Shown here: positions 10,945 through 25,458 of the stretch, piece after piece
How the letters are laid out: every line of letters begins with the position of its first letter
Numbering within the stretch: the stretch's first letter is position 1
Made by a program: the position numbers and the translations under genes
Notes under the pieces: generated by a model
Databases searched by the model: none
The model's input: the letters and a program-made list of their open reading frames with translations, nothing else
What the model was told of the DNA's origin: nothing
NCBI GenBank assembly: GCA_016432325.1
Contig: CP066684.1
Span: forward strand, 265,018 to 329,017
DNA: 64,000 bases
Reading direction: 5' to 3'
DNA from: Candidatus Aenigmatarchaeota archaeon
GTDB lineage: Archaea > Aenigmatarchaeota > Aenigmatarchaeia > PWEA01 > JACQIF01

Positions 10945-11038
10945 GAGGTTCTTAGATATGCATGGGATTTAAAGAATGAACGCGTGTAAAAACCGAAAGG
11001 TTTAATAACGAGCCGCGCCCACATACTTCGGTGGTTCC

Positions 11039-11680
11039 ATGGCGAACAGCGTGAATGTATCGATTCTCGGCACTGGCAACGTAGCGTCGAACCTCGCGAA
11101 GGGCCTTTCCAAGAGCGGCTACGCTGTGATGCTCGGTTCCAGAACGCCCGCGGAGGCGAAGAAAAAGATGGGCGCGCTGCCTGCCGACGTAACGGTCGGA
11201 ACGCTCAAAGAGGCGGCCAAGTTCGGAGACGTTATTTTTACGGCAATTCCCTTCGCTTCTCTACCCGAGACAATCGAAGCCATCGGCCCCGAAAACCTGC
11301 GCGGCAAAATAATCGTCGATAACACCAACGTTCTTACGCCTTCGTTCGAGTGGGCCATCGGGTTCTCCACATCAGGCGCCGAAGAGTTGGCCAAGCTCGT
11401 CCCGGGCGCGCGCGTTGTCAAGGCCTTCAACACGGTCTTCGCCGAGCACATGGGTGTTGGAACTCTCGGCAAGGAGAAGCTCACGGTTTTCGCCGCTGGC
11501 GACGACGAGGCGAGCAAGAACGTCGTGCGCACGTTGGCCGAGTCGATAGGCTTCGAGACTGTCGACGCGGGCCCTCTGAAGTCGGCGCGATATCTGGAAG
11601 CGATGGGAATCCTGAACATAACTCTGGGATACGGCCTGAAGATGGGCTCGAGGATTGGATTGAGACTTGTGAAGGAGTGA
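11039..11680 (+). CDS. NADP oxidoreductase, coenzyme F420-dependent family (F420:NADP reductase / P5CR-like Rossmann protein)
   Basis: N-terminal ILGTGNVASNLAKGLSKSGYAVMLGSR dinucleotide-binding motif; 213 aa. Confidence 0.5.
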   Translation: MANSVNVSILGTGNVASNLAKGLSKSGYAVMLGSRTPAEAKKKMGALPADVTVGTLKEAAKFGDVIFTAIPFASLPETIEAIGPENLRGKIIVDNTNVLTPSFEWAIGFSTSGAEELAKLVPGARVVKAFNTVFAEHMGVGTLGKEKLTVFAAGDDEASKNVVRTLAESIGFETVDAGPLKSARYLEAMGILNITLGYGLKMGSRIGLRLVKE

Positions 11681-11733
11681 ATAACTGAATTCTTAACAAT
11701 ATCTTCCGATCCAGAACCGCGCGTTTTATATAG

Positions 11734-11970
11734 TTGCCAAACCAATTCAATAATGTGAACCCCATGAGGCAAGTCATAATCTACAAAGGAGAAGACAATT
11801 ATTGGGTGGCCGAATGCCCGTCCCTTCCGGGATGCATTTCTCAAGGCAAAACGAGAGAGGAGGCCGTCGCAAACATAAAAGAAGCCATAGAAGGTTACAT
11901 CGAAACTCTGAAGCAGGATAAGCTTCCTGTTCCAAAAGAGCACTACGACACTATGATGGTTGCCGTATGA
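11734..11970 (+). CDS. hicB: HicB-family antitoxin (UPF0150)
   Basis: YKGEDNYWVAECPSLPGCISQGKTREEAVANIKEAI. The likely start is the internal Met at 11764. The stop overlaps the hicA start (ATGA). Confidence 0.65.
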   Translation: MPNQFNNVNPMRQVIIYKGEDNYWVAECPSLPGCISQGKTREEAVANIKEAIEGYIETLKQDKLPVPKEHYDTMMVAV

Positions 11971-12185
11971 AACTTCCCGTTGTTTCTGGAAGGGAGACGG
12001 TCAAGGCTTTGGCCAAAGTCGGGTTCTCACTCAGGCACAGAAAAGGCAGTCATATGATCCTGAGGCGCGACAACCCGTTTACACAACTGACCGTGCCAGA
12101 CCATAAAGAGCTGGACAGAGGAACGTTAAGGGCTATCATCAGGCAGGCCGGGTTGACTGTGGAACAGTTCACAGACCTTTTGTAA
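11967..12185 (+). CDS. hicA: HicA-family mRNA interferase toxin
   Basis: 72 aa; VKALAKVGFSLRHRKGSHMIL (YcfA/HicA signature). Confidence 0.7.
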   Translation: MKLPVVSGRETVKALAKVGFSLRHRKGSHMILRRDNPFTQLTVPDHKELDRGTLRAIIRQAGLTVEQFTDLL

Positions 12186-12287: not shown

Positions 12288-12301
12288 TGGTGCGATGGCC
12301 G
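12288..12301 (+). repeat. Candidate att core, left copy
   Basis: TGGTGCGATGGCCG is identical to 25299-25312. A 14-mer match alone is within chance for 64 kb, so the call rests mainly on its position. Confidence 0.25.
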
Positions 12302-12391
12302 CTTCCCACCCCCAGAGTGCGGTGCGTCGTTAGGATAACTTTTACCGGCGTTCGTCTGTTGGGAGGGCTTGTATTTATAGATTTTTAGGGC

Positions 12392-13216
12392 TCACCCGAA
12401 TTGATTTTTCCAGTCTTCCAATATCTGTTTTAACCTTTTGACTTCCCTTTCTGGAAGGGGATTATGATGATCTACTATGTTTCTAGATAGTTTCACCGCT
12501 TTCTCAAATGTAACAGGCCATAGTTCCAAATCGAGAAGATTCTTAAAAACTTCGTGCTCTTTGCGCATTATGTAGACCAAATCCTCCAAGTCAGTATAGA
12601 ACAATTCGTGTGACCCGCGTGGGGCGTGCCATTTGTTAATCCCTTCCAATGCCTTTCTGGATTTAACCTCGTTGAGCAAACTACTTCTGATTCCTGCTTT
12701 GTGCCACCAGTCGGCACCGTATTTTTGTGATAGGGTATTATGAATAAAATGTCGCAGAGAATTTTCGAGTAAGTAGAGAATAACATACGGTTCTGCCATT
12801 CTTTGTGCATCTTCTTCCACCGCATCATCGATAAAGGGAATCGAGGAGGGCATTCTGAATCGAGGTTTTATTCTTCTCGGTATGTCTCTAGGGTCTTGAT
12901 CATCTTCTCTAAGGTCTACATGTAGCCATTGATCTAGAACACCGAGAAGCTTGAGCTGCGGTACCTTTTCATAGATTTCTGAGCGATCATTGGTGCCGAT
13001 TTGTCTAATCAGGCCATATCCATGATCGTTGAACCTATTGATGGCCTTGCTCATTGTAGGTTGTGGTATAGAAAGTCTCGTGGAAAGCTCCTTTACGGAT
13101 TCCTTTTTGCTGATGTTCTTTAGGATTCTTAGTCTAATTGGAGAATTCCCCACAGCCTCTTGAAACTTTTTTATCAAGTCTCTTTTTTCCCGGGTCAACA
13201 CCTTCAAGACAATCAC
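12392..13216 (-). CDS. wHTH-HEPN fusion protein (putative HEPN RNase with an N-terminal winged-helix domain)
   Basis: C-terminal RNIVDHHNP fits the HEPN R-N-x3-H motif. An N-terminal winged helix is indicated by ILKNISKKESVKELSTRLSIPQPTMSKAINRF. The gene is AT-rich relative to its flanks. Confidence 0.55.
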   Translation of the reverse strand: MIVLKVLTREKRDLIKKFQEAVGNSPIRLRILKNISKKESVKELSTRLSIPQPTMSKAINRFNDHGYGLIRQIGTNDRSEIYEKVPQLKLLGVLDQWLHVDLREDDQDPRDIPRRIKPRFRMPSSIPFIDDAVEEDAQRMAEPYVILYLLENSLRHFIHNTLSQKYGADWWHKAGIRSSLLNEVKSRKALEGINKWHAPRGSHELFYTDLEDLVYIMRKEHEVFKNLLDLELWPVTFEKAVKLSRNIVDHHNPLPEREVKRLKQILEDWKNQFG

Positions 13217-13425
13217 TGCCGCTTTATCTTTCTTGAAGTTCTCTGGCGTCTTATTGAGCTGGCGGACTTTCCTAATAGGCTCCCGATTTCCTCCGACGTG
13301 AGACCATTTGCAGTCATTATCTTAATCTGCGTCCTCTCATCTTTCCCCTGAGCCGCCACAACTGCTAATAGCCTATCAAGCTTGCGATTCGTTTCCCTCA
13401 AAAGCTCCGATGCTCTATCACTCAT
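13213..13425 (-). CDS. Small HTH DNA-binding protein (HTH_10 / sigma-70 region-4-like)
   Basis: 70 aa; LTSEEIGSLLGKSASSIRRQR; paralogous to the adjacent 81-aa ORF; overlaps its neighbours. Confidence 0.45.
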   Translation of the reverse strand: MSDRASELLRETNRKLDRLLAVVAAQGKDERTQIKIMTANGLTSEEIGSLLGKSASSIRRQRTSRKIKRQ

Positions 13426-13663
13426 TGTTGTCGCCCCCTTTGCCCTTTACGTGTTTTTTGGCCCTTCTTGCCCGCGAGAGGATGGTACTGACGCTCTCTG
13501 GAGTAGTGCCAACAACGCTGGCGATTTCTGACGGCCGCAGATTACATTGATCGAGGAGGGTTATCCTGTCCGTCATGGTCAAACCACGAGTACTCGACAA
13601 CGCTATTATACGCATAAGTTTATCCAACCTAACCGTAAGCTCTTTGAATTGTCTGTCGTCCAA
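13418..13663 (-). CDS. Small HTH DNA-binding protein (HTH_10 / sigma-70 region-4-like), paralogue of 13213-13425
   Basis: 81 aa; LRPSEIASVVGTTPESVSTILSRARRAKK. Confidence 0.45.
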   Translation of the reverse strand: MDDRQFKELTVRLDKLMRIIALSSTRGLTMTDRITLLDQCNLRPSEIASVVGTTPESVSTILSRARRAKKHVKGKGGDNNE

Positions 13664-13667
13664 GATA

Positions 13668-13985
13668 TCACCTTGCCCTAACGTAATATTTTTCCTTGCC
13701 CCCTCCCCGAGCTTCTCTGATTAAACCCGCATTCTGTAGAAGGGCAACATTCTGACTTATCTGTTGGATCGATTTGCTCGTCTCTGCCGCTATCTGACCT
13801 ACCGATCGTTTGCCGTTACATAGCTCATAAATCTTTTTACGCAGCGTTGATTTACCCAACATCCGTTGCTTCGATGCTTCCAAAACCTCAGCATTGACAA
13901 CGGTGGAGAGCTCGACTAGTTCTTGTAACCTATCTTGGATTTTATACAGGGCAAGGAGTATTTCAGCTTCGTTATCCTTAACCAT
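13668..13985 (-). CDS. ArsR/TrmB-like winged-helix transcriptional regulator
   Basis: 105 aa; ELCNGKRSVGQIAAETSKSIQQISQNVALLQNAGLIREARGGG. Confidence 0.45.
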   Translation of the reverse strand: MVKDNEAEILLALYKIQDRLQELVELSTVVNAEVLEASKQRMLGKSTLRKKIYELCNGKRSVGQIAAETSKSIQQISQNVALLQNAGLIREARGGGKEKYYVRAR

Positions 13986-14034
13986 ATCAATCGTTTCATT
14001 AAACGAGAGTTAACCTTAAATACACGACGTTACC

Positions 14035-14051
14035 ATATAACACTGTTATAT
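14035..14051. repeat. 17-bp perfect palindrome ATATAACACTGTTATAT (copy 1 of 4)
   Basis: Sits 50-66 bp upstream of the HTH/HEPN operon start (13985) and is followed by a TATTTAAGG TATA-like element. Confidence 0.6.
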
Positions 14052-14771
14052 TTCCTTGCCTGTCACAAACGGCGCCCTCCCGAGAAGCGCCTGCGCGAAC
14101 TCCGCCTCCGTTATGACCGCCGGCTTGAGCAACTTGATCCCCGTCAGCAGCTCCTTCGGCGCGTCCAGCTGGCCGCAGATGCCGATGGCGCGGGCTTCCA
14201 CGCCGTCCGCCGCCGAGAGTTTCTTGAGAATCTTTTCATCGGTGCCGAGGGAAAGCACCAGCACGAAATATTTTGTAAGCGCGTCTAGTATCGAAAGCTT
14301 GTCCGTATGAACGAAGCCATAACTCGGAACGGAGAAGGCCGCTGTTAGCAGTCTCTCCTGGACCTCCTTCGAATAGAAGAATCGTTCGAGTAGTTCATAA
14401 TCCTTCGTAGTCGGCAGGCGTCCGCCGGCCTCCTTGACGCGCTTCCTCGCGTCCGCGGCCGCGTCATCCCAATATTCCCACAGCGGCTTCAGCGTCGATT
14501 GGTAGAAGACCATTCGCCCGTAGCGGCCGTTGGCCGCCCGCTCGTACTTCTTGATGCCGCGGACGCGCTTCAGGTATTCGTCCCTCGAAACGTCAGCCTT
14601 CGCTACGTAGCCGCGGCTGCGCAGCCACTTCAGCTCGGCGATGAGATACTTCTTCGACGTCCGAACCGTCGCCTGAAGGGTCTTCAGGCTCTGAGGCGCG
14701 ATGAGCGTCATCAGATAGACGCTGAGCGTGAGAGTCTTTGCCAGCTTCGCGTAGGGCCGTGTGCGCTTCAT
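14046..14771 (-). CDS. Hypothetical protein (241 aa), element-borne
   Basis: High-GC ORF with coding-like composition; no recognisable motif. Confidence 0.35.
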   Translation of the reverse strand: MKRTRPYAKLAKTLTLSVYLMTLIAPQSLKTLQATVRTSKKYLIAELKWLRSRGYVAKADVSRDEYLKRVRGIKKYERAANGRYGRMVFYQSTLKPLWEYWDDAAADARKRVKEAGGRLPTTKDYELLERFFYSKEVQERLLTAAFSVPSYGFVHTDKLSILDALTKYFVLVLSLGTDEKILKKLSAADGVEARAIGICGQLDAPKELLTGIKLLKPAVITEAEFAQALLGRAPFVTGKEI

Positions 14772-14897
14772 AATACAACGTTCACGCGCCCGGTTAAATA
14801 GGCACGTGCCCTAAGGTTTCCTAAAAGCAACTTCTGACGCCCGACGAGGAACCTTAAGCGGGTGATAACTATATACCACCGCCGGTAGTAAACTGTC

Positions 14898-15176
14898 ATG
14901 GCAAACAGAACCCGCGCGACGTTCACACTCGGTGTAAAGACCGTCGCGCGCTTGCGCGAAGCGTCCGCGATTGCCGGCCTGCCGATGTCGCAGTTGTGCG
15001 AGCAGGCCATTCTTGAAAAGGCGCGGAGCCTTCTGAAAAACGGCAATGGCCAGAAGCAGTGCAACGGTTCTTCATCCCCGATAGTCTGCCTCATAGTCGC
15101 CATTCTGAAAAAGTTCCTGGGAATCCCAGAGCAGAACGGTAACAAGAACGGAGCTGGTAACGGTGCCAATAATTAG
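14898..15176 (+). CDS. Ribbon-helix-helix (CopG/Arc-like) protein
   Basis: N-terminal ATFTLGVKTVARLREASAIAGLPMSQLCEQAILEKA RHH pattern. Confidence 0.4.
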   Translation: MANRTRATFTLGVKTVARLREASAIAGLPMSQLCEQAILEKARSLLKNGNGQKQCNGSSSPIVCLIVAILKKFLGIPEQNGNKNGAGNGANN

Positions 15177-15292
15177 GTTTGAGTCTCTGGAGGAGTTCTT
15201 CGCCTACATCGAGGAGCAGGGACGCAAGCGCGGCGTGGTGCTGATGAAAGAGCCGCCTGCGGCACCGGCGCCCAAGAAGGAGGTCGAACGCC

Positions 15293-15577
15293 GTGGACGC
15301 TGACGAGATGCTTCCGAGCGTCAAGGGTTGGCGGTCGGCGGGTCTGAGCCAGATGGACATCGTGATAATGGTGCTCCGGCGGAACATGCCCGGCGTTTCG
15401 CAGAGGCTGTTGGCCGAAATACTGGACATAAAACAGCCGGCGATAGCGCGGCGAGTCAGGACGCTCGAGAGATTCGGCTTCCTGAAGGAACGAAAAGAGG
15501 TGGTTGAGTATGAAGGCAAGATACGAGAGCAAGAGATTCCTGTGCGGCGACAAGCGGTCGCTGAGATTGGAGCTTGA
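15293..15577 (+). CDS. Winged-helix (MarR-like) transcriptional regulator
   Basis: GVSQRLLAEILDIKQPAIARRVRTLERFGFLKE. Confidence 0.4.
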   Translation: MDADEMLPSVKGWRSAGLSQMDIVIMVLRRNMPGVSQRLLAEILDIKQPAIARRVRTLERFGFLKERKEVVEYEGKIREQEIPVRRQAVAEIGA

Positions 15578-15848
15578 AGGCGGGGACTTGGCGTTGTTGT
15601 CCAAAGGCCCGCTCGCGGCGACTGCGCACTACAAAGGCGAGGCGCGGCCTGTTGAGCTGCGCATCGGCGAACATAAAGAGGAGCTGCGTTTGGATTCGCA
15701 GAGAGGAACGATGGACGACGCGAAGAATTACGTCGTGACGATGAGCCGCGGCGCGTACGAGTCGCTAGGGCCCGGAATGTTCGCCGGTGTCAGCGGACGG
15801 GACTACTGCGGAGGGGAGATACATGTGTCGACCGAAGAAAAAGATTAG
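15504..15848 (+). CDS. Hypothetical protein (114 aa)
   Basis: ORF only; overlaps its neighbours. Confidence 0.2.
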   Translation: MSMKARYESKRFLCGDKRSLRLELEGGDLALLSKGPLAATAHYKGEARPVELRIGEHKEELRLDSQRGTMDDAKNYVVTMSRGAYESLGPGMFAGVSGRDYCGGEIHVSTEEKD

Positions 15849-15996
15849 GATCGTCAGCTCGCGGCTCACGACCGATATGAACGGCTTCCTGAGACGCGAG
15901 TGCTGCCGCCTGCGCGTCACAAGAAGCGAGTTCATACGCGTGTTCCTGTGGAAGGAATTGGCGCAACGCCTCAAGGCGATGGAGGCGTCGTTATGA
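15823..15996 (+). CDS. Ribbon-helix-helix (CopG-like) protein
   Basis: KKIRIVSSRLTTDMNGFLRRECCRLRVTRSEFIRVFL; the internal Met at 15823 is the likely start. Confidence 0.35.
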   Translation: MCRPKKKIRIVSSRLTTDMNGFLRRECCRLRVTRSEFIRVFLWKELAQRLKAMEASL

Positions 15997-16182
15997 CACA
16001 GCTCATAAGCTATCGCGGCCTGATGAGGCTCTACGAACTGTGGCGCGGCGGCTCGTCCATGCCTCCGGGATGGCGCGAGTCGGTTCGCCGTTACGTCGTT
16101 CATAAGCGCTGCCGCGTCCTGATTGACAGCGACGGCGTATCGCAGCTCGCCCAGGCGGAGCAGATGGCCAAGATGATGTTCG

Positions 16183-17475
16183 GTGGTGCGGATGCGCAAA
16201 TGCCTGTTTGAAGGATGCACGGCGGAGGTGGAGGATTCATACCCTCTCGATTTCTGCGCGGCGCACAGGGAGGCGCCGGATGAAAGAATTACGGCACCGA
16301 TGTCTCTTGATGAACTCAAAGAAATCCTCGGCGTCACAATCAAAGCCGACGACACGAACAAGGTTATAACGTTTCTCGCTATGCTGACTGCGTTCACCGA
16401 GGACGCGCAGATTAATGTTTCGTTCCGCGCGCCATCGAGCACCGGCAAGTCTTACATACCTTTAGAAATCGCTTCTCTCTTCCCCAAAGACGACATAATA
16501 GAAATCGCCTATGCTAGCCCGACAGCCTTCTTCCACGACCGCGGCGAGTGGGACGCGGAGACGGGATGCCTCAAAATAAACCTTGAGAGAAAGATAATGA
16601 TTTTCGTGGACATGCCGCACGATTCGCTGCTTCACCGATTGCGTCCGCTTCTTTCGCACGACCGCAAGGAATTAATCTTCAAAATCACAGACAGGAGCGA
16701 CAAGAAAGGATTGAGAACGAAGAACGTCATACTGCGCGGCTACCCTTCGGTTGTCTTCTGTACGGCCTCTTTGAAAATGGATGAACAAGAATCCACGCGC
16801 AACGTTCTGTTGAGCCCCGAAACGAACCAAGAAAAGCTGCGAGAGTCCGTTCTGCTCAAGATCCGCAAGAACGCCGATGTGAAGACATACCAAGACTGGC
16901 TGATGAGCGATTCGCGGCGCGAAATCCTGAAGGCGCGCGTCGAGCAGATTAGGAACGCGAAGATAGACAACGTCATAATCCCGGACACGGCGCGCATCCA
17001 AGAACGTTTCCTCAACCGCAAGCTGAAGCCGCGCGACATGAGGGACGTGGGGCGGCTGATGTCCATCGTAAAGGCAGTCGCCCTGCTTAACTTTTCCCAC
17101 AGGGAACGGCGCGGCAACGACCTTGTCTGCAGCGCGGACGACATAAACACTGGCTTCGCCGTCTGGGGCGACATAGAGCGGTCGCAAGACTTGGGAGTGC
17201 CGCCGTACATTCTGCGGGTTTTTGACGAGGTTATAATGCCGCTGGCCGGGAACGGGGGAATCCAGCGCAAGCGGATAGTCAGCAAGCACTACGAGGTCTA
17301 TGGCAAGCCTCTGCCCGACTGGCTGCTGAGACAGCAGATATTGCCATCGCTGGAGGCTGCCGGACTCGTCTATCAGGAGGTCGATCCCGAGGATCGGCGC
17401 CAGCTCCTCATCCAAGTTTCACCCGCACCCGCTACTCACGGTATCTCTGGGTCGCTGGAAAATACCGTGAGTTAA
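16183..17475 (+). CDS. Element replication/packaging-type P-loop NTPase with an N-terminal Cys-rich region
   Basis: 430 aa; N-terminal CxxC...CAAH; Walker A RAPSSTGKSY; Walker B KIMIFVDM. Confidence 0.5.
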   Translation: MVRMRKCLFEGCTAEVEDSYPLDFCAAHREAPDERITAPMSLDELKEILGVTIKADDTNKVITFLAMLTAFTEDAQINVSFRAPSSTGKSYIPLEIASLFPKDDIIEIAYASPTAFFHDRGEWDAETGCLKINLERKIMIFVDMPHDSLLHRLRPLLSHDRKELIFKITDRSDKKGLRTKNVILRGYPSVVFCTASLKMDEQESTRNVLLSPETNQEKLRESVLLKIRKNADVKTYQDWLMSDSRREILKARVEQIRNAKIDNVIIPDTARIQERFLNRKLKPRDMRDVGRLMSIVKAVALLNFSHRERRGNDLVCSADDINTGFAVWGDIERSQDLGVPPYILRVFDEVIMPLAGNGGIQRKRIVSKHYEVYGKPLPDWLLRQQILPSLEAAGLVYQEVDPEDRRQLLIQVSPAPATHGISGSLENTVS

Positions 17476-17488
17476 GACTGGGGGTAAG

Positions 17489-17503
17489 TATAACAGTGTT
17501 ATA
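17489..17503. repeat. Palindrome TATAACAGTGTTATA (copy 2 of 4; 15 bp perfect within the 17-mer)
   Basis: Lies exactly at the GC-to-AT compositional break after the rep gene (ends 17475). Confidence 0.6.
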
Positions 17504-17504
17504 T

Positions 17505-17978
17505 TTAAACAACAAATGTTGTTTGAAAATGGGTTAGCGTATCCTTTAGAGGCAGCCCACTTCCTATACAAATTTGGACTTTCATCGCACCGTCCTTAAA
17601 TTGGGTGTCGTATAGACTGCCCACATTGGATGGCTGATGATGCCAGTTCTTGTCTTTCCATATTATATCGGTACCAGCAGGCGAGACCACGACACCATAA
17701 ACATCGATAGTATCCCCATCTTTCGTATCTTGCCTAGCTTGCAGGAAGACGTTACCGCTAACTTGCGGTGCGATATCGAAAAAAAGTTGGTTTCCCACCA
17801 AGCGCATGTAACCGTATGTAAGATGTGATTCTTCCTGAGTCCCCAATCTCAGAACAAAGGTCATATTAGATTTAGACCCTTCCGTAATCCGAAGATGGGA
17901 TTCTTGGTTCTCGTAAAACTTCAGTTTCTTCATATCTCGGGAAAGGTTGAACTGACTTTTATAGTGCATAGCACTCAT
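17505..17978 (-). CDS. Hypothetical protein (AT-rich cassette)
   Basis: ORF 17505-18038 trimmed to an internal Met to avoid overlapping the divergent RM gene; no known motif. Confidence 0.3.
   Translation of the reverse strand: MSAMHYKSQFNLSRDMKKLKFYENQESHLRITEGSKSNMTFVLRLGTQEESHLTYGYMRLVGNQLFFDIAPQVSGNVFLQARQDTKDGDTIDVYGVVVSPAGTDIIWKDKNWHHQPSNVGSLYDTQFKDGAMKVQICIGSGLPLKDTLTHFQTTFVV
17507..17524. terminator. Palindrome AAACAACA-aa-TGTTGTTT between convergent genes (candidate bidirectional terminator)
   Basis: 8-bp perfect arms flanked by T/A runs, between the rep gene (+) and ORF 17505-17978 (-). Confidence 0.3.
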
Positions 17979-17985
17979 TAAGGTC

Positions 17986-20598
17986 ATGGAACGCCAAGAA
18001 GTCAGGGCACAGATCAAAACTCTTGTAGAAGACTTCAAGGCAAACTATACTTCATACAAATCCCGCTCCGAAGCTGACATAGAGCAACTTGTGCTACGAC
18101 TCTTCAAGATTCTTGGTTGGACAGACGTCAACGACGTTTTCCAGCAAGTTAAGACGCACCGAGGCGAAAAACGAGGTAGAGCCGACTTCGCCTTCAAAAT
18201 CAATGATAGGACAGTTTTCTTTTTGGAAGTAAAGAAGATGGGCGTACCTTTGGATAAAGAGGCGGATAGACAGGTTATATCGTATGCTCTATCTCAGAGA
18301 ATACCGTTCGCCGTATCGACAAACTTCGAGGAATTAAAGCTCTTTTGTGTTGAAGCGTTCGATAAGAAAGATCAGGTTTTCAGAGTCTTCAGGTACGAAG
18401 ATTACTCGATCAAAGATGATTTGTTTCTTCTGTCGAAGGAGAGTTTCGCTTCGGGTAACACGTTGAAAGAAGCTGAAAGCGAGGGTCGACTGAAGAAGAG
18501 AGTAACCATCGACAAACCGCTTTTGGAAGACCTCATGCATATCCGCAGTCTCGTAGCAGGCGACATAGAAAAAAGTTACCCGGACAAATACGAACTCAAT
18601 GAGCGCGACGAAATAATTCAGAGAATAATAGACCGCTTGATTTTCATACGTCGGTGTGAGGATGTGGGCATGAACCCAGAGGGTCAAACGCTCGAAGAAA
18701 TCAAACATCTTTCAGACGAGAAAGCGTATCCTAAACTGAAACAACTCTTCGCTAAGTATAATGATGTCTACGATAGCGGCTTATTCTCGATTGGCACGGA
18801 TAATGATTGTGATAGAATAACGATCGATGGGTCTATCATTCACAAGCTTGTAGGATACCTCTATGAATCCAAGAACGGTCAGTATATTTACAACTTTGAC
18901 TGGATAGATGCCGACGTACTTGGACAAGTGTACGAACAATATCTCGGTAAAATACTCGCACAAACAAAATCAGGTAAAACGAAACTTAAGGAAGGACAAG
19001 CGCATCGTAAGGAACAGGGAATATACTATACTCCCACCTACATTGTCAATTACATTATTAAGAACACTGTTGGCGCTAAACTAAAAGAGAGGAAAATTAA
19101 CGTGAACGATATTTCGATACTCGATCCTGCTTGTGGGTCTGGATCATTTCTTATCAAGGCATTTGACGAGATGTATAACTATAGACGGGGTAAAGGCGGC
19201 ACGGATCAGCGTAAATTTGATACACAAGGCATTTACTCCATTAAAACCGAAATTCTTAAAAACAATATTTTCGGTGTCGATCTTGACAACAAAGCCGTGG
19301 AAATAGCTAAATTAAATCTACTCTTAAAGGCGGCAGAGAACGGACGCCGATTACCGAAGGAATTAGACGCTCACGTCAAGCGTGGTAATAGTATTATAGA
19401 TGATGAAAAAGTTGTGGGCGCCGATGCGTTCCGTTGGGAGAGTGAATTTACAGATATCGTAAAACAAGGTGGATTTGACATCATTATAGGCAATCCGCCT
19501 TATGGGGCAGAGTTGAAGGAAAACGAAAGGGAATACATTTCTCGGAAATATGAAACCGCGAAATCGTACAAAAATACAGCGCTTGTTTTCATAGAGAAAT
19601 CGATGAATCTATTAAAAGATGGAGGATACTTTGGAATGATTGTACCAAAGTCCTTGGCATATAGCCAAGCGTGGAAACCATGTAGAGACTTCATTAAGAA
19701 GGACATGATTTTGTTAGTTGATGTTAGCAAAGCCTTTGAAGATGTTTTATTGGAACAAGTTATATTCATTATACAAAAGGGCAGTGGCAAAAAGTCCTAC
19801 ATTGTAGAAAACATTGATACCGGCTCTAAATTTACTGTGGACAAATCATTCATAGATAAAATCGATTCCTTGATAGTTCATGACAGTAGAGAAGACTTCG
19901 AAGTGTTCAAACATCTTATGTCCTCTCCATTACAAATGAAGAGTGTTTCCAAAACAAGTCGTGGATTGCCGCTCCAGAAGTTTATAACCAAAAAGAAAAC
20001 ACCATATAAAATATTTCGTGGGGTCAACATTTCCCGCTATCACCTTGGGGATAGTACAGACTTCTTAGAGAAAATCGATGCTACAAATACAAAGGTTAAA
20101 CAGCTTCTTCAACCTAAGATAATTTCACAGAGAATAGTGGCTCATGTAACACGCCCAAAGGACCATATCATAATCATGTCTGCATTGGATGGAGAAGGAC
20201 AGTTAAATGTGGATACTGTAGAAAATACCACTCTAACCGATAAGAAATACAAGCTAGAGACTATTTTGGCTATAATGAACTCCGAATTGATTTCATGGTA
20301 TGCATACAGGTATATCTTCGGTAAAGCCATTAGAACTATGGATTTCGATGATTACTATGTTGGTAAAATACCTCTGCCTCATACATCTAAATCTGTTGAA
20401 ACTGCTCTAACCGAGAAGGTTTCAAGAATAAATGACCTTAACAAAAAAGTTCATCAGTTGGGCGATAAGAAAACGGCCGAGACTGCTAAGCTCGACGAAG
20501 AAGTCAAGAAGACTAATGCGGAGATAGACGAACTCGTCTACAAGATATACGGGGTAACGGACGCCGAGAAGAAGACTATTAAAGAAAGCTTAAATTAA
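17986..20598 (+). CDS. Type IIG (fused REase-MTase-TRD) restriction-modification enzyme, gamma-class N6-adenine methyltransferase
   Basis: 870 aa. HsdR_N-like N-terminus with PD-(D/E)xK (ADFAF...FLEVKK); motif X VLGQVYEQYL; GIYYTPTYIV; motif I ILDPACGSGSFL; motif IV IIGNPPYGAE; ~300-aa C-terminal target-recognition region. ~40% GC. Confidence 0.7.
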   Translation: MERQEVRAQIKTLVEDFKANYTSYKSRSEADIEQLVLRLFKILGWTDVNDVFQQVKTHRGEKRGRADFAFKINDRTVFFLEVKKMGVPLDKEADRQVISYALSQRIPFAVSTNFEELKLFCVEAFDKKDQVFRVFRYEDYSIKDDLFLLSKESFASGNTLKEAESEGRLKKRVTIDKPLLEDLMHIRSLVAGDIEKSYPDKYELNERDEIIQRIIDRLIFIRRCEDVGMNPEGQTLEEIKHLSDEKAYPKLKQLFAKYNDVYDSGLFSIGTDNDCDRITIDGSIIHKLVGYLYESKNGQYIYNFDWIDADVLGQVYEQYLGKILAQTKSGKTKLKEGQAHRKEQGIYYTPTYIVNYIIKNTVGAKLKERKINVNDISILDPACGSGSFLIKAFDEMYNYRRGKGGTDQRKFDTQGIYSIKTEILKNNIFGVDLDNKAVEIAKLNLLLKAAENGRRLPKELDAHVKRGNSIIDDEKVVGADAFRWESEFTDIVKQGGFDIIIGNPPYGAELKENEREYISRKYETAKSYKNTALVFIEKSMNLLKDGGYFGMIVPKSLAYSQAWKPCRDFIKKDMILLVDVSKAFEDVLLEQVIFIIQKGSGKKSYIVENIDTGSKFTVDKSFIDKIDSLIVHDSREDFEVFKHLMSSPLQMKSVSKTSRGLPLQKFITKKKTPYKIFRGVNISRYHLGDSTDFLEKIDATNTKVKQLLQPKIISQRIVAHVTRPKDHIIIMSALDGEGQLNVDTVENTTLTDKKYKLETILAIMNSELISWYAYRYIFGKAIRTMDFDDYYVGKIPLPHTSKSVETALTEKVSRINDLNKKVHQLGDKKTAETAKLDEEVKKTNAEIDELVYKIYGVTDAEKKTIKESLN

Positions 20599-20664
20599 CG
20601 TCTGAGACTTGACCCAATACACCATATGGAAAGGGTTTAATAGCTTTGTCCATTCACATTATAC

Positions 20665-21759
20665 ATGGTCAGGGATAGTCTAGAATTCTTTGATGCTGAC
20701 GGAGAATTTTTAAAAAGAATAGAGTCCGTCAAGTCAATTGGACCTACGCCCCGTAAGGTCATTCTCTTTATCCAAGATTCAGAAATGCCTTTTTTGAAAC
20801 TGATTAAGCAATGGATTCCTGCTAGATATGAAGGCACTATTTGTAAAACAGAAGAATTTGATAGATTCGACGTAGCGGAGCTTACTATAAAAAATAGAGA
20901 TTTAGAAGGCGCTTTATACAAATGTTCTCACTGTGGTCAAGAAATTCCCAAAGAAGAACTTTTTGAATATGGACAAAACATGCAGAACTTACTTGTATTC
21001 CCTAAAAATAGTCCCGTCTTTTTCTTGGTAACAAATAAAGGTTCCCATGAACTGGACGCCGATTTAGGCTTCTTCAAAGCACTTTATCCCTTCGTATCTC
21101 GTGTACGATTCCGTTCGTACCAACTAAAACAAATGCTAGACGTTCTTCCTAATAAAACCGATATAGTTATTTCAGAATACGTTGCTAAACGTTATTATGG
21201 CGAAAAAAAGACAATCGAACTTCACCAAAAGGTGGACGTTGATACGGCATTTCTTCAAGCGGCTAAGGAAAATACCTGGATTGACAGCATTCTTCTGGAA
21301 GTTGATGGAAAGAAAATACGATTGGCGCGAAACGGAAGAATACAATACTATCAGTCGTATCACTTTAGCAACATCTTCAGTCAACTGATTAAACCAATAC
21401 TGCATAACCTAACAGCAAACTATGAAAATGTTCTAAGAAATCGCTCTCGGACAATTGCTAACCCGGCGGCCAAACCTATAGTATTTAAAACGGAAAAACC
21501 AGTTTTTACTTCTCAGAATGCTGGTATCGAACTGATAAAACGACTTGGCCGCCTACGGGGAATAGAAATAGCACAAGTCAATAGCGACGACCAGATGCCG
21601 GAGTTGATGGTAAAAGATTACACGTCTGGAGCAAGCTACTCAATAGACGTCGTAGCCGAGAATATGATAGTTATGACACCACAGACAGGCGTACGAGAAA
21701 TTTCTCTTAATAGAGTCGTGAATAAAATACTAGAAGATTTTGACTGTGAGGTAATCTGA
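20665..21759 (+). CDS. Hypothetical protein (364 aa) with a CxxC pair, AT-rich cassette
   Basis: CSHCGQ motif; ~36% GC; its stop overlaps the next start (TGATG). Confidence 0.4.
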   Translation: MVRDSLEFFDADGEFLKRIESVKSIGPTPRKVILFIQDSEMPFLKLIKQWIPARYEGTICKTEEFDRFDVAELTIKNRDLEGALYKCSHCGQEIPKEELFEYGQNMQNLLVFPKNSPVFFLVTNKGSHELDADLGFFKALYPFVSRVRFRSYQLKQMLDVLPNKTDIVISEYVAKRYYGEKKTIELHQKVDVDTAFLQAAKENTWIDSILLEVDGKKIRLARNGRIQYYQSYHFSNIFSQLIKPILHNLTANYENVLRNRSRTIANPAAKPIVFKTEKPVFTSQNAGIELIKRLGRLRGIEIAQVNSDDQMPELMVKDYTSGASYSIDVVAENMIVMTPQTGVREISLNRVVNKILEDFDCEVI

Positions 21760-22889
21760 TGGTTGCTCCAAAACACACGAAAGATGATGTAGACAGTTAT
21801 CGGGAGGCCGTTTTGGCTAATATTGTTTTTAAAAAGTATTTGAAAGAAATATGGAATGTTGGATACGATCTATATTTCGGTGCTAGACTAGTCTATGATA
21901 AAGACAAACCAGCGGTAACGCCCGATTTGTTTCTTAAAGGTACTTCGAGTAATGATATTGTAGGGGATATTAAACGTTCTTTGCCGTCAAATTTCCCTAA
22001 CAGTTTGGAGTCCAAAAACTATATGGAATGGGCCAGGGGGGAAGGTGGAAAAGGTTTCGTTATGCAGATGTTGGATGTAAGTCTAACACAAAAGTTAAAG
22101 AAATATGATAGCGAATTTCTCAATTGTACGAACCCACATGATATTTTATTTATCCTGCACGAAAGAGCACAGAGAACATACATGCTCTGGAAGAGACATT
22201 TACCGTACATCCCACGAAACAATCTGGTTGGTCTACAATATCATGTTTCTAGAGGGTCTAGCGTCAAAACACTTAATATCGGAATACTAGACGGACAGTT
22301 CTCAGATCAGGGCTTAGGCGAATTCTTCAGAGATAACCCAATAGCTTGGCACTTTAACGAAGAATCCCAGCTAATCGGAGAATACAAAATTGCTGTAGTT
22401 GACGAGGGCCATCAGCCACCAAAAGAATATGTGATGCTCATTCTGTGGCAAAACATTTTTGATGAAATTCTGAGAAACAAATACTCAGAAAGTCTTTTGG
22501 ATAGAGTGAAAATACTAGAACAAGGATTAAATCCAGTTATAGTTGTGGATTTGGATACCATTATAGAATACCTTAGTAAATATTATATATTACCATATTA
22601 TGATACCGCCGACAACTCACAGGACACAAGGAGACAGTTCACGAGAAGCCTTGTAAAAGATGCAATGAACTCATTTACTGAAATTGATATAACCGATGTA
22701 ACGAAGGTAGACGGGGGAACAAATCCCGCGTATAAAATAGTCTATCAACCGCTGTCTAAAGGACAGGATGCCTTGCAAGTCTTAATAGACGCGTTGTCTG
22801 ATGCGGGAATTTTAGAAAAGGAAGTGGTCGATATCCCGAGACAGATTGATCTAACATCATTTACCGATAAAGACAGTGATACTCGATAG
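21759..22889 (+). CDS. Hypothetical protein (376 aa) with an N-terminal PD-(D/E)xK-like nuclease motif
   Basis: TPDLFLKGTSSNDIVGDIKR (PD...D-I-K); translationally coupled to the upstream ORF. Confidence 0.4.
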   Translation: MVAPKHTKDDVDSYREAVLANIVFKKYLKEIWNVGYDLYFGARLVYDKDKPAVTPDLFLKGTSSNDIVGDIKRSLPSNFPNSLESKNYMEWARGEGGKGFVMQMLDVSLTQKLKKYDSEFLNCTNPHDILFILHERAQRTYMLWKRHLPYIPRNNLVGLQYHVSRGSSVKTLNIGILDGQFSDQGLGEFFRDNPIAWHFNEESQLIGEYKIAVVDEGHQPPKEYVMLILWQNIFDEILRNKYSESLLDRVKILEQGLNPVIVVDLDTIIEYLSKYYILPYYDTADNSQDTRRQFTRSLVKDAMNSFTEIDITDVTKVDGGTNPAYKIVYQPLSKGQDALQVLIDALSDAGILEKEVVDIPRQIDLTSFTDKDSDTR

Positions 22890-23275
22890 AGTGTAGAGAG
22901 TTAGAGGAGTAGCCAATTGAAGTCCCAAAAATAAGGTATATAAACATCCTCACCAATCAATTATTCAATATGCTCCCCAGTCTTGTACGCCGGCTCGTCC
23001 GGCGGCAACACTGGGTTATTCTCTCTTTTCCTTGATGCATTCTAAGGCTTCTAGAAGGCTGTGTTTGACGCAACGACTAGACTACGAATTTCGATGTATC
23101 AAACAATTTAGATTTTATTCTAACTCCACCTTCTGCTTCCACCTGGGCCACTCGGTGATTCCCCCTTTCACTCGTAATTCTCCGTGCCTTGGAAATGTTG
23201 GTGGCCTGAACCAGAACCTTTCCTAATCTATGGACGTTAATCCAATCATCACTGTCCACGGGAAAAGTTACTGGG

Positions 23276-23674
23276 TTATTCATCTGTCTCACTCATTTTT
23301 CCTGCTTTTACAAACTTGTCAAAAACTCGTTGTACCTGCTCGCCAGAAAGGGCCAATTCTGTGGAGACAAAAAAGACGGATAGTTTCGTATTACCAGCAC
23401 TCTTTTCTCTCAATATTAGTTGTGTTATCTCCTTTTCTGCTTCCATATCACTTATCCTCCTGTCTTTAGTGATCGATTCGTGCATCCCATGCATTTCATG
23501 TTGCCTTCTCAATGAGACTACCTCTTGGCGAAGGAAATCAACCTCATCCTCAAGACTTCTCAGTCTCTGTTGTTGCGCCCTAAAAACAGGCAGAGGGATG
23601 GATAGACGCTCGAAAACGGTTTGTATAGGCTCGTCTTCTCCAACAATGTCTATTGCACGTCTGATGGTTGCCAT
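23276..23674 (-). CDS. Hypothetical coiled-coil protein (132 aa)
   Basis: AT-rich ORF downstream of the integrase on the same strand. Confidence 0.3.
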   Translation of the reverse strand: MATIRRAIDIVGEDEPIQTVFERLSIPLPVFRAQQQRLRSLEDEVDFLRQEVVSLRRQHEMHGMHESITKDRRISDMEAEKEITQLILREKSAGNTKLSVFFVSTELALSGEQVQRVFDKFVKAGKMSETDE

Positions 23675-23678
23675 ACAT

Positions 23679-23942
23679 TCACCTACTTATCATACTCTTT
23701 ACCTTTTGCAAAAACTCCGGATCTGGTGATTCTATGTGCAGTATTTTGTCTTCAACTTCCTTCTTGTTTTGGTGGCTCATTATCAATGGAATGGGCATGT
23801 TGTTTTTTACCTTTACCAGAACAATGCTCGCTGGCATTATATCTTTATCCATTTGAGATAGATTAGACGCGAATTCTTTATCAAAGAGATCCCCAAGGCC
23901 CACACCATGCAATCGCACGCTCTCTATTTGTTCCATGAACAC
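23679..23942 (-). CDS. Hypothetical protein (87 aa)
   Basis: ORF between the integrase and 23276-23674, same strand. Confidence 0.3.
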   Translation of the reverse strand: MFMEQIESVRLHGVGLGDLFDKEFASNLSQMDKDIMPASIVLVKVKNNMPIPLIMSHQNKKEVEDKILHIESPDPEFLQKVKSMISR

Positions 23943-24048
23943 TCACCGTATATTATTGGTGCTACAGCCACTTAAACTGAAGACGGGGTGGTTTTACATC
24001 ATTCCGAAGTCTTTATTTAAGGCTATGTATCATTGACCATAGTGTTTT

Positions 24049-24065
24049 ATATAACACTGTTATAT
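24049..24065. repeat. 17-bp perfect palindrome ATATAACACTGTTATAT (copy 3 of 4)
   Basis: Overlaps the integrase stop codon at the AT-to-GC compositional break. Confidence 0.6.
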
Positions 24066-25238
24066 TCTCTCCCTCATCCTCTCTTCCATCCTGTCCATGA
24101 GAGCCGTCACGAGCTCCTCGGATATAACGAAGCCCTTGTTGCTTTCCATCGTCTGCGCCTTCGCCTTCTCCGAAATCGGATGGCGGCATCGCACGCACCA
24201 GTTCCTGTCCATAGTATTAGACGTGCCGCAGACGCCGCACTCTTTCGGCCGCAGATGGCCGTTCGTCTCCTCCTTCTTCGGAACGAGGCCGTGAATCCTC
24301 AATATAGCCTCGTCCATCTGCGCACCGCTGAGATGGACATAGATTGCGGCCATCTTTGAAGCGCCGGTCCAACCAAGATAAGCCTTCATCTGCTGTTCGG
24401 TCAGCTCGGTGGCCAGCCGCGTCGCGGCCGTGTGGCGGAAGAGGTGTGGGTGCAGCCTTTTCCGATAGCCGCTGCGCTCCTTGATGCGCCTCAGCAGCGT
24501 TTTGAACGTCGAGTAGCTCATCGGTCTGCCGTAGTCCGTCAGCCACAGCGCGTCGTCGCCGTTTTTCGTCGGGTGGGATTCCAAGTAGGCGGACAGGGCT
24601 GGAATGGAGGAAACGATGCGCACGCGCCGCGGGCCGGTCTTGCCGCGGACGTGGATGACGCCGCCGTACTCGTCGAAGGCGGCGTCCTTGTATCTCATGG
24701 AGAGGAGTTCCCCTATCCGCACGCCGCTCTCCCAGAGGGTCCACAGCATGGCGCGGTCGCGCGCCGAACGCGCGTGACGCAGAAGCAGCCGCAGGTCGTC
24801 CTCGCTCACCAAATCCTCGGGAAGCTTTCTCTTGTTCGAGGGCTCGTTCGTCTTTATCCATCGAACCTCCGGCGGGATTTCCTCGTCGTTGCCACGCAGC
24901 CACTTGAAGAAGCGTTTGATGCACGCCCGCTGATCGACCTTCGTTCGCTCTGTCCAGTCGCGCTTCTCCTGTATGCGGCTGACGAGTTCCATCAGATCGT
25001 CCTTGTCCATCTCATCGAAGTTCTTGTGCGCGAGGCGGCCGATGTTGGTCATGCGGATGGCGTAGAAGACCTGGCGATAGACACTGCCCCCGCCGACGCC
25101 GAACTGCCTTATGAACTTGAGAAGCAACTCCCTGTTGGGCTCTGTTATCCGCCCGTCCGTCCGCAGGCGGCGCATCGCCGACTCAAGGCGGTTGTCTATG
25201 TTGTAGATGTCGTGGACTTCAAGACTCTGCTGCGCCAT
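24060..25238 (-). CDS. int: Tyrosine recombinase / phage-type integrase
   Basis: 392 aa; C-terminal catalytic region HLFRHTAATRLA...LGWTGASKMAAIYVHL with the R..H..R..Y residues. Confidence 0.8.
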   Translation of the reverse strand: MAQQSLEVHDIYNIDNRLESAMRRLRTDGRITEPNRELLLKFIRQFGVGGGSVYRQVFYAIRMTNIGRLAHKNFDEMDKDDLMELVSRIQEKRDWTERTKVDQRACIKRFFKWLRGNDEEIPPEVRWIKTNEPSNKRKLPEDLVSEDDLRLLLRHARSARDRAMLWTLWESGVRIGELLSMRYKDAAFDEYGGVIHVRGKTGPRRVRIVSSIPALSAYLESHPTKNGDDALWLTDYGRPMSYSTFKTLLRRIKERSGYRKRLHPHLFRHTAATRLATELTEQQMKAYLGWTGASKMAAIYVHLSGAQMDEAILRIHGLVPKKEETNGHLRPKECGVCGTSNTMDRNWCVRCRHPISEKAKAQTMESNKGFVISEELVTALMDRMEERMRERI

Positions 25239-25298
25239 AATACATTAACCTCCGCCGGAGTATATAGTTATCGCCGTCGACGCACCATAGAATGAGGT

Positions 25299-25312
25299 TG
25301 GTGCGATGGCCG
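25299..25312 (+). repeat. Candidate att core, right copy
   Basis: TGGTGCGATGGCCG is identical to 12288-12301 and lies 61 bp upstream of the integrase start. Confidence 0.25.
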
Positions 25313-25334
25313 GGATTTTCAAGCACTCCTACGT

Positions 25335-25382
25335 TCGTAGGGGTTAAAGGGGCGCCGAAGTGCCACTTTTTTGAACCCGGGC
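25335..25382 (+). repeat. ~50-nt intergenic repeat, copy A
   Basis: TCGTAGGGGTTAAAGGGGCGCCGAAGTGCCACTTTTTTGAACCCGGGC is ~85% identical to 27787-27840. Confidence 0.5.
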
Positions 25383-25458
25383 TACGACGTTGGCAACGTC
25401 GAGTCCTACCACTAGACTACCATCGCTCGCCCGAGAATATGCCAGTATTGTATTTAAA

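Follow-up and report, generated by a model that had tools for sequence, protein, structure and literature searches.

A candidate two-protein defence module linked to restriction-modification systems in DPANN archaea

The DPANN archaea have very small genomes. Few defence systems have been recognised in them, and both restriction-modification (RM) and CRISPR were under-represented in a survey of 7,747 archaeal genomes (PMC12988326). Among described defence systems, HEC-02 (Hma-embedded candidate 02) is composed of an ABC ATPase, HEC-02A, and a NERD-like PD-(D/E)xK nuclease, HEC-02B, and both genes are needed for defence (Payne et al., bioRxiv 10.1101/2024.01.29.577857; PADLOC-DB). RexA of phage lambda has the RdgC/Iml3/Chl4-type fold; it is a non-specific DNA binder that governs a separate effector (PMC11077077). 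Here we describe a conserved pair of overlapping archaeal genes, ORF1 and ORF2, that is plausibly a new antiviral defence module, a candidate whose function we infer. The pair lies in a 64,000-nt stretch of contig CP066684.1 of a Candidatus Aenigmatarchaeota archaeon; this whole stretch is called the window, and its features are as follows.

12288-25426, no strand: 13-kb integrated element carrying the pair, with direct repeat, integrase and target tRNA
12288-12301 and 25299-25312: 14-nt direct repeat
16183-17475: candidate replication ATPase of the element
17506-24048, no strand: low-GC block (40% versus 56% in the flanks) holding the Type IIG enzyme, ORF1, ORF2 and a 132-aa gene
17986-20598, plus strand: complete Type IIG RM enzyme, the upstream neighbour of the pair, with HSDR_N-like nuclease, Eco57I/N6_Mtase methylase and TaqI_C specificity domains (Pfam)
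20630-20643, plus strand: candidate archaeal BRE/TATA, AAAGGG-TTTAATAG, centred about 25 nt 5' of the ORF1 ATG
20665-21759, plus strand: ORF1, 364 aa, of a family without a database name
20923-20934, plus strand: ORF1 C87-S-H-C90 (CxxC), an insertion specific to certain lineages that may be a zinc knuckle
21757-21761, plus strand: TGATG stop/start overlap of ORF1 and ORF2, with translational coupling predicted from the sequence
21759-22889, plus strand: ORF2, 376 aa, putative effector, its N-terminal region bearing a PD-(D/E)xK-type motif and its central/C-terminal region being conserved
21918-21974, plus strand: candidate catalytic D56 ... D70-x-K72 of ORF2 (residues 54-72, TPDLFLKGTSSNDIVGDIK)
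22404-22466, plus strand: most conserved block of the ORF2 family (residues 216-236), E216 ... P221-x-E-Y-V-M-L-I-L-W230 ... F234-x-E236
24060-25238, minus strand: tyrosine integrase
25299-25426, minus strand: target tRNA-Gly(GCC) with an intron

The two reading frames and their TGATG overlap had been reported in a first-pass annotation and are exact as given: at the junction (...ATCTGATGG...) the TGA at 21757-21759 and the ATG at 21759-21761 have a single base in common. The GC content, which had been put at about 36%, measured slightly higher, 38.7% for ORF1 and 38.6% for ORF2 versus 56% in the flanking genome. Full-length homologues of 42-47% identity, together with more distant ones of 22-30%, were found in other metagenomes and MAGs, and ORF1 and ORF2 are therefore real genes. 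The AAAGGG-TTTAATAG element is a possible archaeal BRE/TATA promoter and may give rise to a leaderless ORF1-ORF2 transcript. A set of 1.84 billion proteins yielded about 25 cluster representatives of ORF2, a tiny family, and the pattern PxEY[VI][MV][LVT][IVL]LW served to retrieve its loci. The two homologous genes were adjacent, overlapping or abutting in all 10 loci holding both (the window plus L001-L006, L008, L010 and L011), and housekeeping genes lie downstream in L007 and L009. No relatives of either family were present in 2.9 million IMG/VR viral contigs, and the ORF2 relative P0003 as query found no match in 50,697 phage or 72,556 plasmid records; these searches thus give no support to an origin from a virus or a plasmid backbone.

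In direct searches, neither protein matched Pfam, NCBIfam, PHROGs, PADLOC or PDB sequences above noise. The first-pass annotation had recommended sensitive profile and structure searches. Of these, PDB profile searches with 4-, 5- and 20-sequence alignments returned nothing except C2H2-like noise at the ORF1 CxxC, and the ORF1 model led to structural neighbours of the RdgC/Iml3 type.

The PD-x(n)-D-x-K motif that had been claimed for the 376-aa protein is present and proved to be a property of its whole family. Residues 54-73 of ORF2 read TPDLFLKGTSSNDIVGDIKR, and in an alignment of 20 diverse relatives [ST]PD-x(9-13)-G[DE]xK was kept at the same position in every sequence. P55, D56, G69 and K72 were invariant and position 70 was D in 10 sequences and E in 10, so that a D ... 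(D/E)-x-K catalytic signature falls at equivalent positions across the family. Note that a PD-x(n)-[DE]xK string arose in 18% of composition-preserving ORF2 shuffles; the string alone is within chance, and its weight comes from the same-position conservation in 20 of 20 relatives. E216, P221 and W230 of the most conserved block were also invariant in these sequences. ORF2 is probably a DNA-cutting enzyme, putatively of the PD-(D/E)xK type. One relative (P0020) weakly matched HEC-02B across the motif segment (E 6.6e-5, 20.9 bits), a model not reached by the other 19 of the 20 relatives, the window protein included, in the PADLOC search. No Pfam HSDR_N, Mrr_cat or NERD match was found in any of the 20. 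When the family was compared by hhalign with the HSDR_N domains of three neighbouring RM enzymes, the alignment was in register with the HSDR_N D...ExK...QxxxY and was not significant (E 0.16); 15 of 294 column shuffles scored equally high (empirical p ~0.05). The element order of ORF2 is that of HSDR_N and Mrr in this non-significant alignment, with D where one strand begins, (D/E)xK on the strand after it and Q/K-x3-Y in the following helix. An AF2 model of ORF2 made from a four-sequence input was unusable (pLDDT 32, pTM 0.19), and a restriction-endonuclease-like alpha-beta-beta-beta-alpha-beta core is putative for ORF2. ORF2 lacks a hydrophobic segment (Kyte-Doolittle maximum 1.17 over a 19-residue window). 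A match of the relative P0014 to Pfam MC7 (the Lamassu/ABC-3C middle component) was set aside as unexplained and probably due to chance, being below the cut-off (E 2.6e-4) and seen in one of the 20 members.

The likeness to HEC-02 lies in a two-gene module embedded in RM-like operons and an effector with a (D/E/Q)xK PD-(D/E)xK signature. Unlike HEC-02A, ORF1 is not an ABC ATPase: a Walker A motif is absent, PADLOC found no HEC-02A match in the ORF1 family and no ATPase gene lies between or adjoining the pair in the pair-bearing loci. Moreover, ORF2 is about twice as long as the HEC-02B profile with its 171 positions, and the ORF1/ORF2 pair is archaeal.

The fold of ORF1 was taken from the one of five models that reached moderate confidence, the remaining models having pLDDT values of 50.5 or less. 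It predicts three alpha/beta modules, similar to the DNA-binding scaffold of the RdgC/Iml3/CENP-L (RexA) type, and retrieved RdgC, Iml3, CENP-L and Chl4 as structural neighbours. Over the whole chain, ORF1 showed structural similarity to the base and centre domains of the RdgC type at low TM-scores (0.31-0.36). On this model ORF1 is probably a DNA-binding partner. The invariant basic residues R146, R150, K175, R176, R222, R262 and K270 are compatible with DNA binding, although they prove nothing, and the protein has no TM segment. Relative to RdgC, the model adds a KA1/TBP-like C-terminal module. ORF1 further differs from E. coli RdgC and the phage RdgC-like proteins in having no sequence-level match to them (Pfam RdgC was matched by none of the nine ORF1 relatives at E<=1) and, in some lineages, in its CxxC insertion. 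The parallel with lambda RexA/RexB is that of two genes, one of which encodes a protein of the RdgC/Iml3/Chl4-type fold, predicted in the case of ORF1. However, RexB is a membrane effector, whereas ORF2 is a soluble putative nuclease. Likewise, Rex belongs to a prophage immunity region, whereas the pair is found in archaeal RM islands, and Rex-related Pfam models gave no match.

The CxxC pair reported earlier from CSHCGQ is indeed there (YKCSHCGQ, with C87 and C90), but it is no family feature, since it occurs in five of nine ORF1 relatives and the segment is deleted in the other four (L006, L008, L010 and L011). C87 and C90 are conserved within a sub-clade only, and no second pair was found that would give the four ligands of a zinc ribbon or C2H2 finger. 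A His follows the CxxC in three of four close relatives and is absent from the window protein, and the zinc-ribbon/C2H2-like matches of this segment were sub-threshold only.

The upstream neighbour of the pair matches PADLOC REase_MTase_IIG (1.6e-93), and the pair starts 66 nt 3' of this gene in the same orientation. At L004 the pair is found 19 nt 3' of a Type I hsdR, again co-oriented. At L005 it lies 1 nt 3' of hsdR and on the same strand, enclosed within a Type I RM operon, the gene order being hsdR (6098-8860), ORF1h (8862-9947), ORF2h (9944-11026), hsdS (11004-12149), MNT, HEPN and hsdM (13399-14862). An MNT-HEPN pair is thus embedded in the same operon. In L006 an AlwI-type Type II system lies some 1.7 kb away, and the pair is divergent from it. 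The association with RM was read from four long contigs; on the short contigs L001-L003 an HTH gene is all that is visible upstream of the pair. The HsdR proteins of L004 and L005 have no detectable relatedness to each other. The first-pass annotation had proposed a partnership with the Type IIG enzyme or, alternatively, an independent system. The former did not survive, because a Type IIG neighbour was found in the window only and the other three RM-linked loci have Type I (L004 and L005) or AlwI-like Type II (L006) systems. The alternative fits better once recurrent RM linkage is added to it: with RM partners of differing type, the pair is a portable module linked to restriction systems generally rather than a Type IIG accessory. 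The two-component nuclease effector proposed there is partly supported, by the conserved pair, the family-wide motif, the weak HEC-02B match of one relative over that motif and the restriction/defence context, while its nuclease fold is putative. The position inside or directly after an hsd operon (L005 and L004) recalls PrrC/EcoprrI and other Type I RM-embedded genes, the guilt-by-embedding PDC candidates. The pair differs from these in that its neighbours also include Type IIG and Type II systems and HTH regulators, and it has no homology to PrrC or RloC. Weak PADLOC matches of the ORF1 family to PDC-M56B and PDC-M14A (E 0.002) were marginal and are not taken as membership.

Within a few kb of the pair, the window, L002, L004 and L008 carry tyrosine integrases that are related to one another. 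In L006 a recombinase-like gene adjoins the pair. Apart from the integrases, the elements have no backbone genes in common. In the window the low-GC block is probably cargo that was transferred jointly. Note that 16-nt palindromes at 17488 and 24049 were considered as borders of this cassette and rejected, because a fourth copy at 53776, outside the island, marks the palindrome as a genome-wide motif and not a cassette end.

Our leading explanation, to which we give about an even chance, is that ORF1 and ORF2 work together as a portable defence module of two proteins, autonomous and directed against foreign DNA, with ORF2 as nuclease effector and ORF1 as DNA-binding sensor or regulator. Such a module would usually ride with RM systems on integrative elements and in defence islands of DPANN archaea. 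ORF2 would be the effector that cuts nucleic acid, its signature being closest to the NERD and HsdR-N types. ORF1, which carries no enzymatic signature, would bind DNA or a DNA-protein intermediate made by the invader and, once bound, may recruit ORF2, license it or hold it back. Overlap of the frames would fix the stoichiometry of the two proteins as a complex. More tentatively, the pair may be a DPANN-restricted immune system in which a sensor of RdgC/RexA fold detects invader DNA or replication/recombination intermediates and switches on a dedicated NERD-like PD-(D/E)xK nuclease, which would amount to a Rex-type sensor with a nuclease effector, coupled genetically to restriction systems as a second line behind them; both protein families would then be new to Pfam, PADLOC and DefenseFinder-type catalogues.

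It is unlikely that the pair is instead a functional accessory of restriction enzymes rather than autonomous. It could be a guard that is held inactive by the intact RM complex and freed when a virus inhibits restriction, as with PrrC/EcoprrI, or an end-binding protein and nuclease that together degrade RM-cut DNA in genomes without RecBCD-like functions. PrrC occurs almost only as an embedded gene of Type I RM systems, and the co-oriented position immediately 3' of a restriction subunit in the window, L004 and L005, within the RM operon itself in L005, argues for such a dependence. However, the partner systems are of three types and the two HsdR proteins are not detectably related, so that a guard relying on specific protein-protein contact would have to adapt anew to each partner. 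Nor is the divergent pair of L006 co-transcribed with its Type II neighbour, L001-L003 have an HTH regulator and not an RM gene directly upstream, and the TATA-like element 5' of ORF1 suggests that the pair has a promoter of its own. A modification-dependent, Type IV-like restriction system, with ORF1 as the reader of modified or otherwise marked DNA and ORF2 as the enzyme that cleaves such DNA, seems very improbable. No similarity to Type IV families, to SRA/YTH/EVE/DUF3427-type readers or to GTPase/ATPase motors was found with PADLOC or Pfam, although the RM-adjacent context is that of Mrr, McrBC and GmrSD-type enzymes (compare Mrr/McrBC beside hsd genes in bacterial immigration-control regions) and the pair has a PD-(D/E)xK motif and lacks its own methyltransferase.

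That integrases often lie nearby also fits a pair that serves the mobile element and not the host, as do the insertion of the window copy within an element in tRNA-Gly, the recombinase-like gene of L006 and the association of RdgC and phage RdgC-like proteins with recombination. ORF2 would then be a toxic nuclease and ORF1 its inhibitor in an addiction (toxin-antitoxin-like) stabilisation system, or the two would process recombination or replication intermediates, as an RdgC-like modulator of RadA/RecA-type recombination and a structure-specific nuclease of the Hjc or lambda-Exo class. We consider this distinctly unlikely. In L005, where the pair is part of a Type I RM operon, the ~15 kb of ORFs examined contained no integrase, the viral, phage and plasmid collections yielded no homologue, the elements are without a common backbone gene beyond their integrases, and both proteins are large for a toxin-antitoxin pair. 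A replication module was rejected as the main reading because of the copy in the chromosomal Type I operon and because the window element already has a separate candidate replication ATPase.

The practical value of an autonomous defence module of this kind is modest until activity of the pair is demonstrated. A constant two-gene module that is found only in DPANN archaea and has been attached repeatedly to restriction systems of different kinds would be a lineage-specific addition to archaeal immunity, and the pair would carry the "guilt-by-embedding" approach over to uncultivated archaea. Should ORF1 indeed be RdgC/RexA-like, the sensor fold of lambda Rex would be linked to a nuclease effector, and the pair would offer a tractable soluble system in which to study how this fold senses infection.

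The first-pass annotation had reported two translationally coupled ORFs beside a Type IIG enzyme, and both were found exactly where it had placed them:

17986-20598: complete Type IIG enzyme upstream of the pair, with HSDR_N-like nuclease, Eco57I/N6_Mtase and TaqI_C domains
20665-21759, plus strand: ORF1, the first gene of the pair, 364 aa
21759-22889, plus strand: ORF2, the second gene of the pair, 376 aa

The product of the upstream gene matches PADLOC REase_MTase_IIG at 1.6e-93. The reported stop/start overlap was confirmed, as the junction (21754-21762) reads ...ATCTGATGG... and the ORF1 TGA stop and ORF2 ATG start share one A. Also present as described were CSHCGQ in ORF1, within YKCSHCGQ (C87, C90), and a motif of the TPD...GDIKR type in ORF2 (residues 54-73, TPDLFLKGTSSNDIVGDIKR). 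The earlier GC estimate of ~36% was slightly low, the measured values being 38.7% for ORF1 and 38.6% for ORF2, with 56% in the flanking genome.

Neither protein had a match above noise in Pfam, PADLOC, NCBIfam or PHROGs or any match among PDB sequences. A Candidatus Aenigmatarchaeota MAG lists the pair as HYS81_01920 and HYS81_01925, both hypothetical proteins, and a word-indexed search of 5.8 billion proteins returned only the proteins themselves plus two or three relatives of 43-47% identity. When a profile of the ORF2 alignment was compared exhaustively with 1.84 billion cluster representatives, 25 proteins were recovered at E<=1e-3; 19 of these had E<=1e-10 and all 19 were 345-391 aa in length. 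Searches of IMG/VR viral contigs, GenBank phages and PLSDB plasmids yielded no relative. ORF1 and ORF2 are real, conserved and very rare genes without a family name.

Twelve further loci were taken from Logan assemblies, one GTDB genome and JGI/ENA metagenomes, and nine of them (L001-L006, L008, L010 and L011) hold both genes. At all ten both-gene loci, the window included, the two homologues share a strand, and that of ORF2 overlaps and comes immediately after that of ORF1. The ORF1 and ORF2 identities between loci vary in step (47/52% for L004-L005, 39/40% for L006-L008, 67/69% for L008-L010 and 88/88% for L001-L003), indicating that the two genes are inherited and diverge as one module. Recognisable housekeeping neighbours are all archaeal (e.g., L37Ae/L21e-type ribosomal proteins in L007 and L009), and the two named genomes with the pair, from Aenigmatarchaeota and Woesearchaeota, are both DPANN.

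Nine columns are invariant in an ORF2 alignment of 20 sequences (22-47% identity to the window protein), including P55, D56, G69 and K72, and [ST]PD-x(9-13)-G[DE]xK is present in 20/20 members. The middle acid is Asp in 10 members and Glu in 10, a substitution expected at (D/E)xK. The motif is weak in any single sequence because 18% of ORF2 shuffles carry PD-x(8,20)-[DE]xK; its weight derives from its invariance across the family. As read from the alignment, the surrounding sequence appears ordered as expected for an alpha-beta-beta-beta-alpha-beta core: an N-terminal helix, Y-x-F-Y-F-G, TPD followed by hydrophobic residues, hydrophobics preceding G-[DE]-x-K, a helix ending Q/K-x3-Y116 (invariant Tyr) and HD followed by hydrophobics. 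Independent support for a nuclease is limited. Residues 55-109 of the family member P0020 match PADLOC HEC-02B, the nuclease of an Hma-embedded candidate system (E 6.6e-5, 20.9 bits), exactly over TPD...GELK...QLQKY. Profile-profile alignment with HSDR_N of the three neighbouring RM enzymes put D, ExK and QxxxY in register, but at an E of only 0.16, and 15 of 294 column shuffles scored as high. The best-conserved block is E216, P221-x-E-Y-x-M-x-x-L-W230 and F234-x-E236. An AF2 model from four sequences was unusable (pLDDT 32). Judged from these sequence features, ORF2 is likely a PD-(D/E)xK nuclease.

The CxxC pair noted in ORF1 at first pass is not a defining feature of the family. The segment around it occurs in L004, L005 and the clade of the window protein but is deleted in L006, L008, L010 and L011, and a second ligand pair is not conserved even among close ORF1 relatives. 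The invariant residues are mostly Arg/Lys (R146, R150, K175, R176, R222, R262 and K270), together with W205-x-D207-S208, D318-Y319 and P339-Q-T341, and ORF1 has neither a Walker A motif nor a hydrophobic segment. The best AF2 model (pLDDT 66.7, pTM 0.62; the other four at <=50.5) has three alpha/beta modules. In the PDB its top Foldseek match was RdgC (E 9e-6, probability 1.0), with Iml3 and CENP-L at 0.99-1.0, and BFVD gave phage RdgC-like proteins. TM-scores were low (0.31-0.38), and no sequence-level link was found between the ORF1 family and Pfam RdgC. Assignment to the RdgC/Iml3/Chl4 fold group is a lead of moderate confidence. The crystal structure of lambda RexA was placed in this group; DNA binding by RexA and its homologues is non-specific (PMC11077077). 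Conserved operons of Halobacteria and Bacillus also hold RdgC-like proteins (PMC11390915).

An RM system is found at the pair in 4/4 loci having several kb on both sides, and the systems differ:

Window: Type IIG; pair begins 66 nt beyond the end of the IIG gene
L004 (Woesearchaeota MAG): Type I with an HsdM/S fusion and an HsdR bearing T1RH-like_C; pair from 19 nt after hsdR
L005: Type I, HsdR with EcoEI_R_C; pair between hsdR and hsdS-MNT-HEPN-hsdM
L006: Type II, AlwI-family endonuclease plus N6_N4 methylase, also a PDDEXK_1 gene; convergent RM pair starts ~1.7 kb downstream

The L004 and L005 HsdR proteins have no detectable similarity to one another, so the association arose on RM backbones that are unrelated. 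A gene embedded in a Type I RM, BREX, DISARM or Hma operon often turns out to belong to a defence system (seven of nine Hma-embedded candidates tested were active), and the pair is embedded in this manner in the L005 operon, which has 1-nt spacing or overlaps throughout. The short halophile-like contigs L001-L003 have an ArsR/MarR-type HTH gene upstream instead of RM. As only one locus has a IIG neighbour, the pair is not a Type IIG accessory, and the partnership suggested by the first-pass annotation was rejected. The first-pass interpretation is supported in part: its alternative, an independent system, stands, as a unit of two genes one of which probably encodes a nuclease.

An MNT (nucleotidyltransferase) and HEPN pair lies at 12282-13402 of L005, between hsdS and hsdM and in the same operon as the ORF1 and ORF2 homologues. 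In L010 the gene immediately preceding the pair (2-700, partial) has ...LYKLRSKIVHHG as its end, a HEPN motif of Rx4-6H-like form; the gene has no Pfam match and may be another defence neighbour.

The pair in the window is carried by an integrated element:

12288-25426: integrated element, 13 kb, bounded by a 14-nt direct repeat
12288-12301 and 25299-25312: the 14-nt direct repeat, TGGTGCGATGGCCG; its right-hand copy forms the 3' end of tRNA-Gly(GCC)
12392-13216, minus strand: winged-HTH plus Swt1-like HEPN protein at the island's left end (PADLOC candidate PDC-M34B, 1.5e-37)
16183-17475, plus strand: P-loop protein, 430 aa, with APSSTGKS (Walker A-like) and a C-terminal MarR-like tail
23077-23674, minus strand: two small ORFs, 132 aa and 71 aa, with a 17-nt overlap, between ORF2 and the integrase
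24060-25238, minus strand: tyrosine integrase with a C-terminal Cys-rich tail
25299-25426, minus strand: tRNA-Gly(GCC) with a ~53-nt intron in the T-arm
14035-14051, 17488-17504, 24049-24065 and 53776-53792: copies of a 16-nt palindrome, the last of them outside the island

ARAGORN calls the tRNA only once the intron is taken out. The PDC-M34B match marks the 12392-13216 gene as the element's second defence-type gene. The P-loop protein belongs to no Pfam family and may be the element's replication or maintenance ATPase; an unrelated P-loop gene (GAPATGKSY) occupies a comparable position in L008. The block 17506-24048 (IIG gene, ORF1, ORF2 and the 132-aa gene) has 40% GC versus 56% for the genome, whereas the integrase (60%) and P-loop/ATPase (55%) genes of the same element are host-like. 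This suggests that the RM gene and the pair came together as cargo, and by the GC contrast they seem to have entered the element later or from a foreign source. Of the two small ORFs, which also lie in this low-GC block, the 132-aa one has no significant family match, and neither has a counterpart in the other loci. The window, L002, L004 and L008 each have a tyrosine integrase near the pair, and these integrases share 27-31% identity; in L006 the pair adjoins a recombinase-like gene lacking a Pfam match. Integrases apart, the elements compared have no gene in common.

The palindrome, TATAACA[C/G]TGTTATAT, has four copies in 64 kb versus 0.01 expected. Three are at or just past stop codons, whereas a long minus-strand ORF has the 53776 copy at its 5' end. 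The low-GC block is flanked by two copies, but one is outside the island. A terminator or an operator are possible roles.

The most economical reading of the pair, to which we give an even chance, is a two-component module acting on foreign DNA. ORF1 would be a DNA-binding sensor or regulator on an RdgC/RexA-type scaffold and ORF2 the effector, a PD-(D/E)xK nuclease, with the overlapping frames providing the two proteins in fixed ratio. The module is portable and mostly travels with RM systems. The rival readings differ mainly in the trigger of the nuclease. We consider it unlikely that the pair depends functionally on the RM enzyme, whether as a guard resembling PrrC or by degrading DNA that has been restricted. 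That the pair serves to maintain or recombine the mobile element seems somewhat less probable still, and a Type IV-like, modification-dependent restriction system is the least probable of these readings.

HEC-02 and Rex (lambda RexA/RexB exclusion) are alike in outline to the pair, each having a partner protein and an effector encoded by two genes kept together. HEC-02, a system of two genes whose activity has been shown by experiment, was discovered as an insert in Hma operons, and HEC-02B is a NERD-like PD-(D/E)xK nuclease (bioRxiv 10.1101/2024.01.29.577857). However, ORF1 is no ABC ATPase, unlike the partner in HEC-02, and ORF2 is no membrane protein, unlike the effector of Rex, and membership in either system was rejected on these grounds. 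The kind to which the pair belongs, a sensor plus a nuclease embedded with RM, is already known. With function read from context and motif conservation only, ORF1 and ORF2 constitute a candidate defence pair that is new, very rare and restricted to DPANN.
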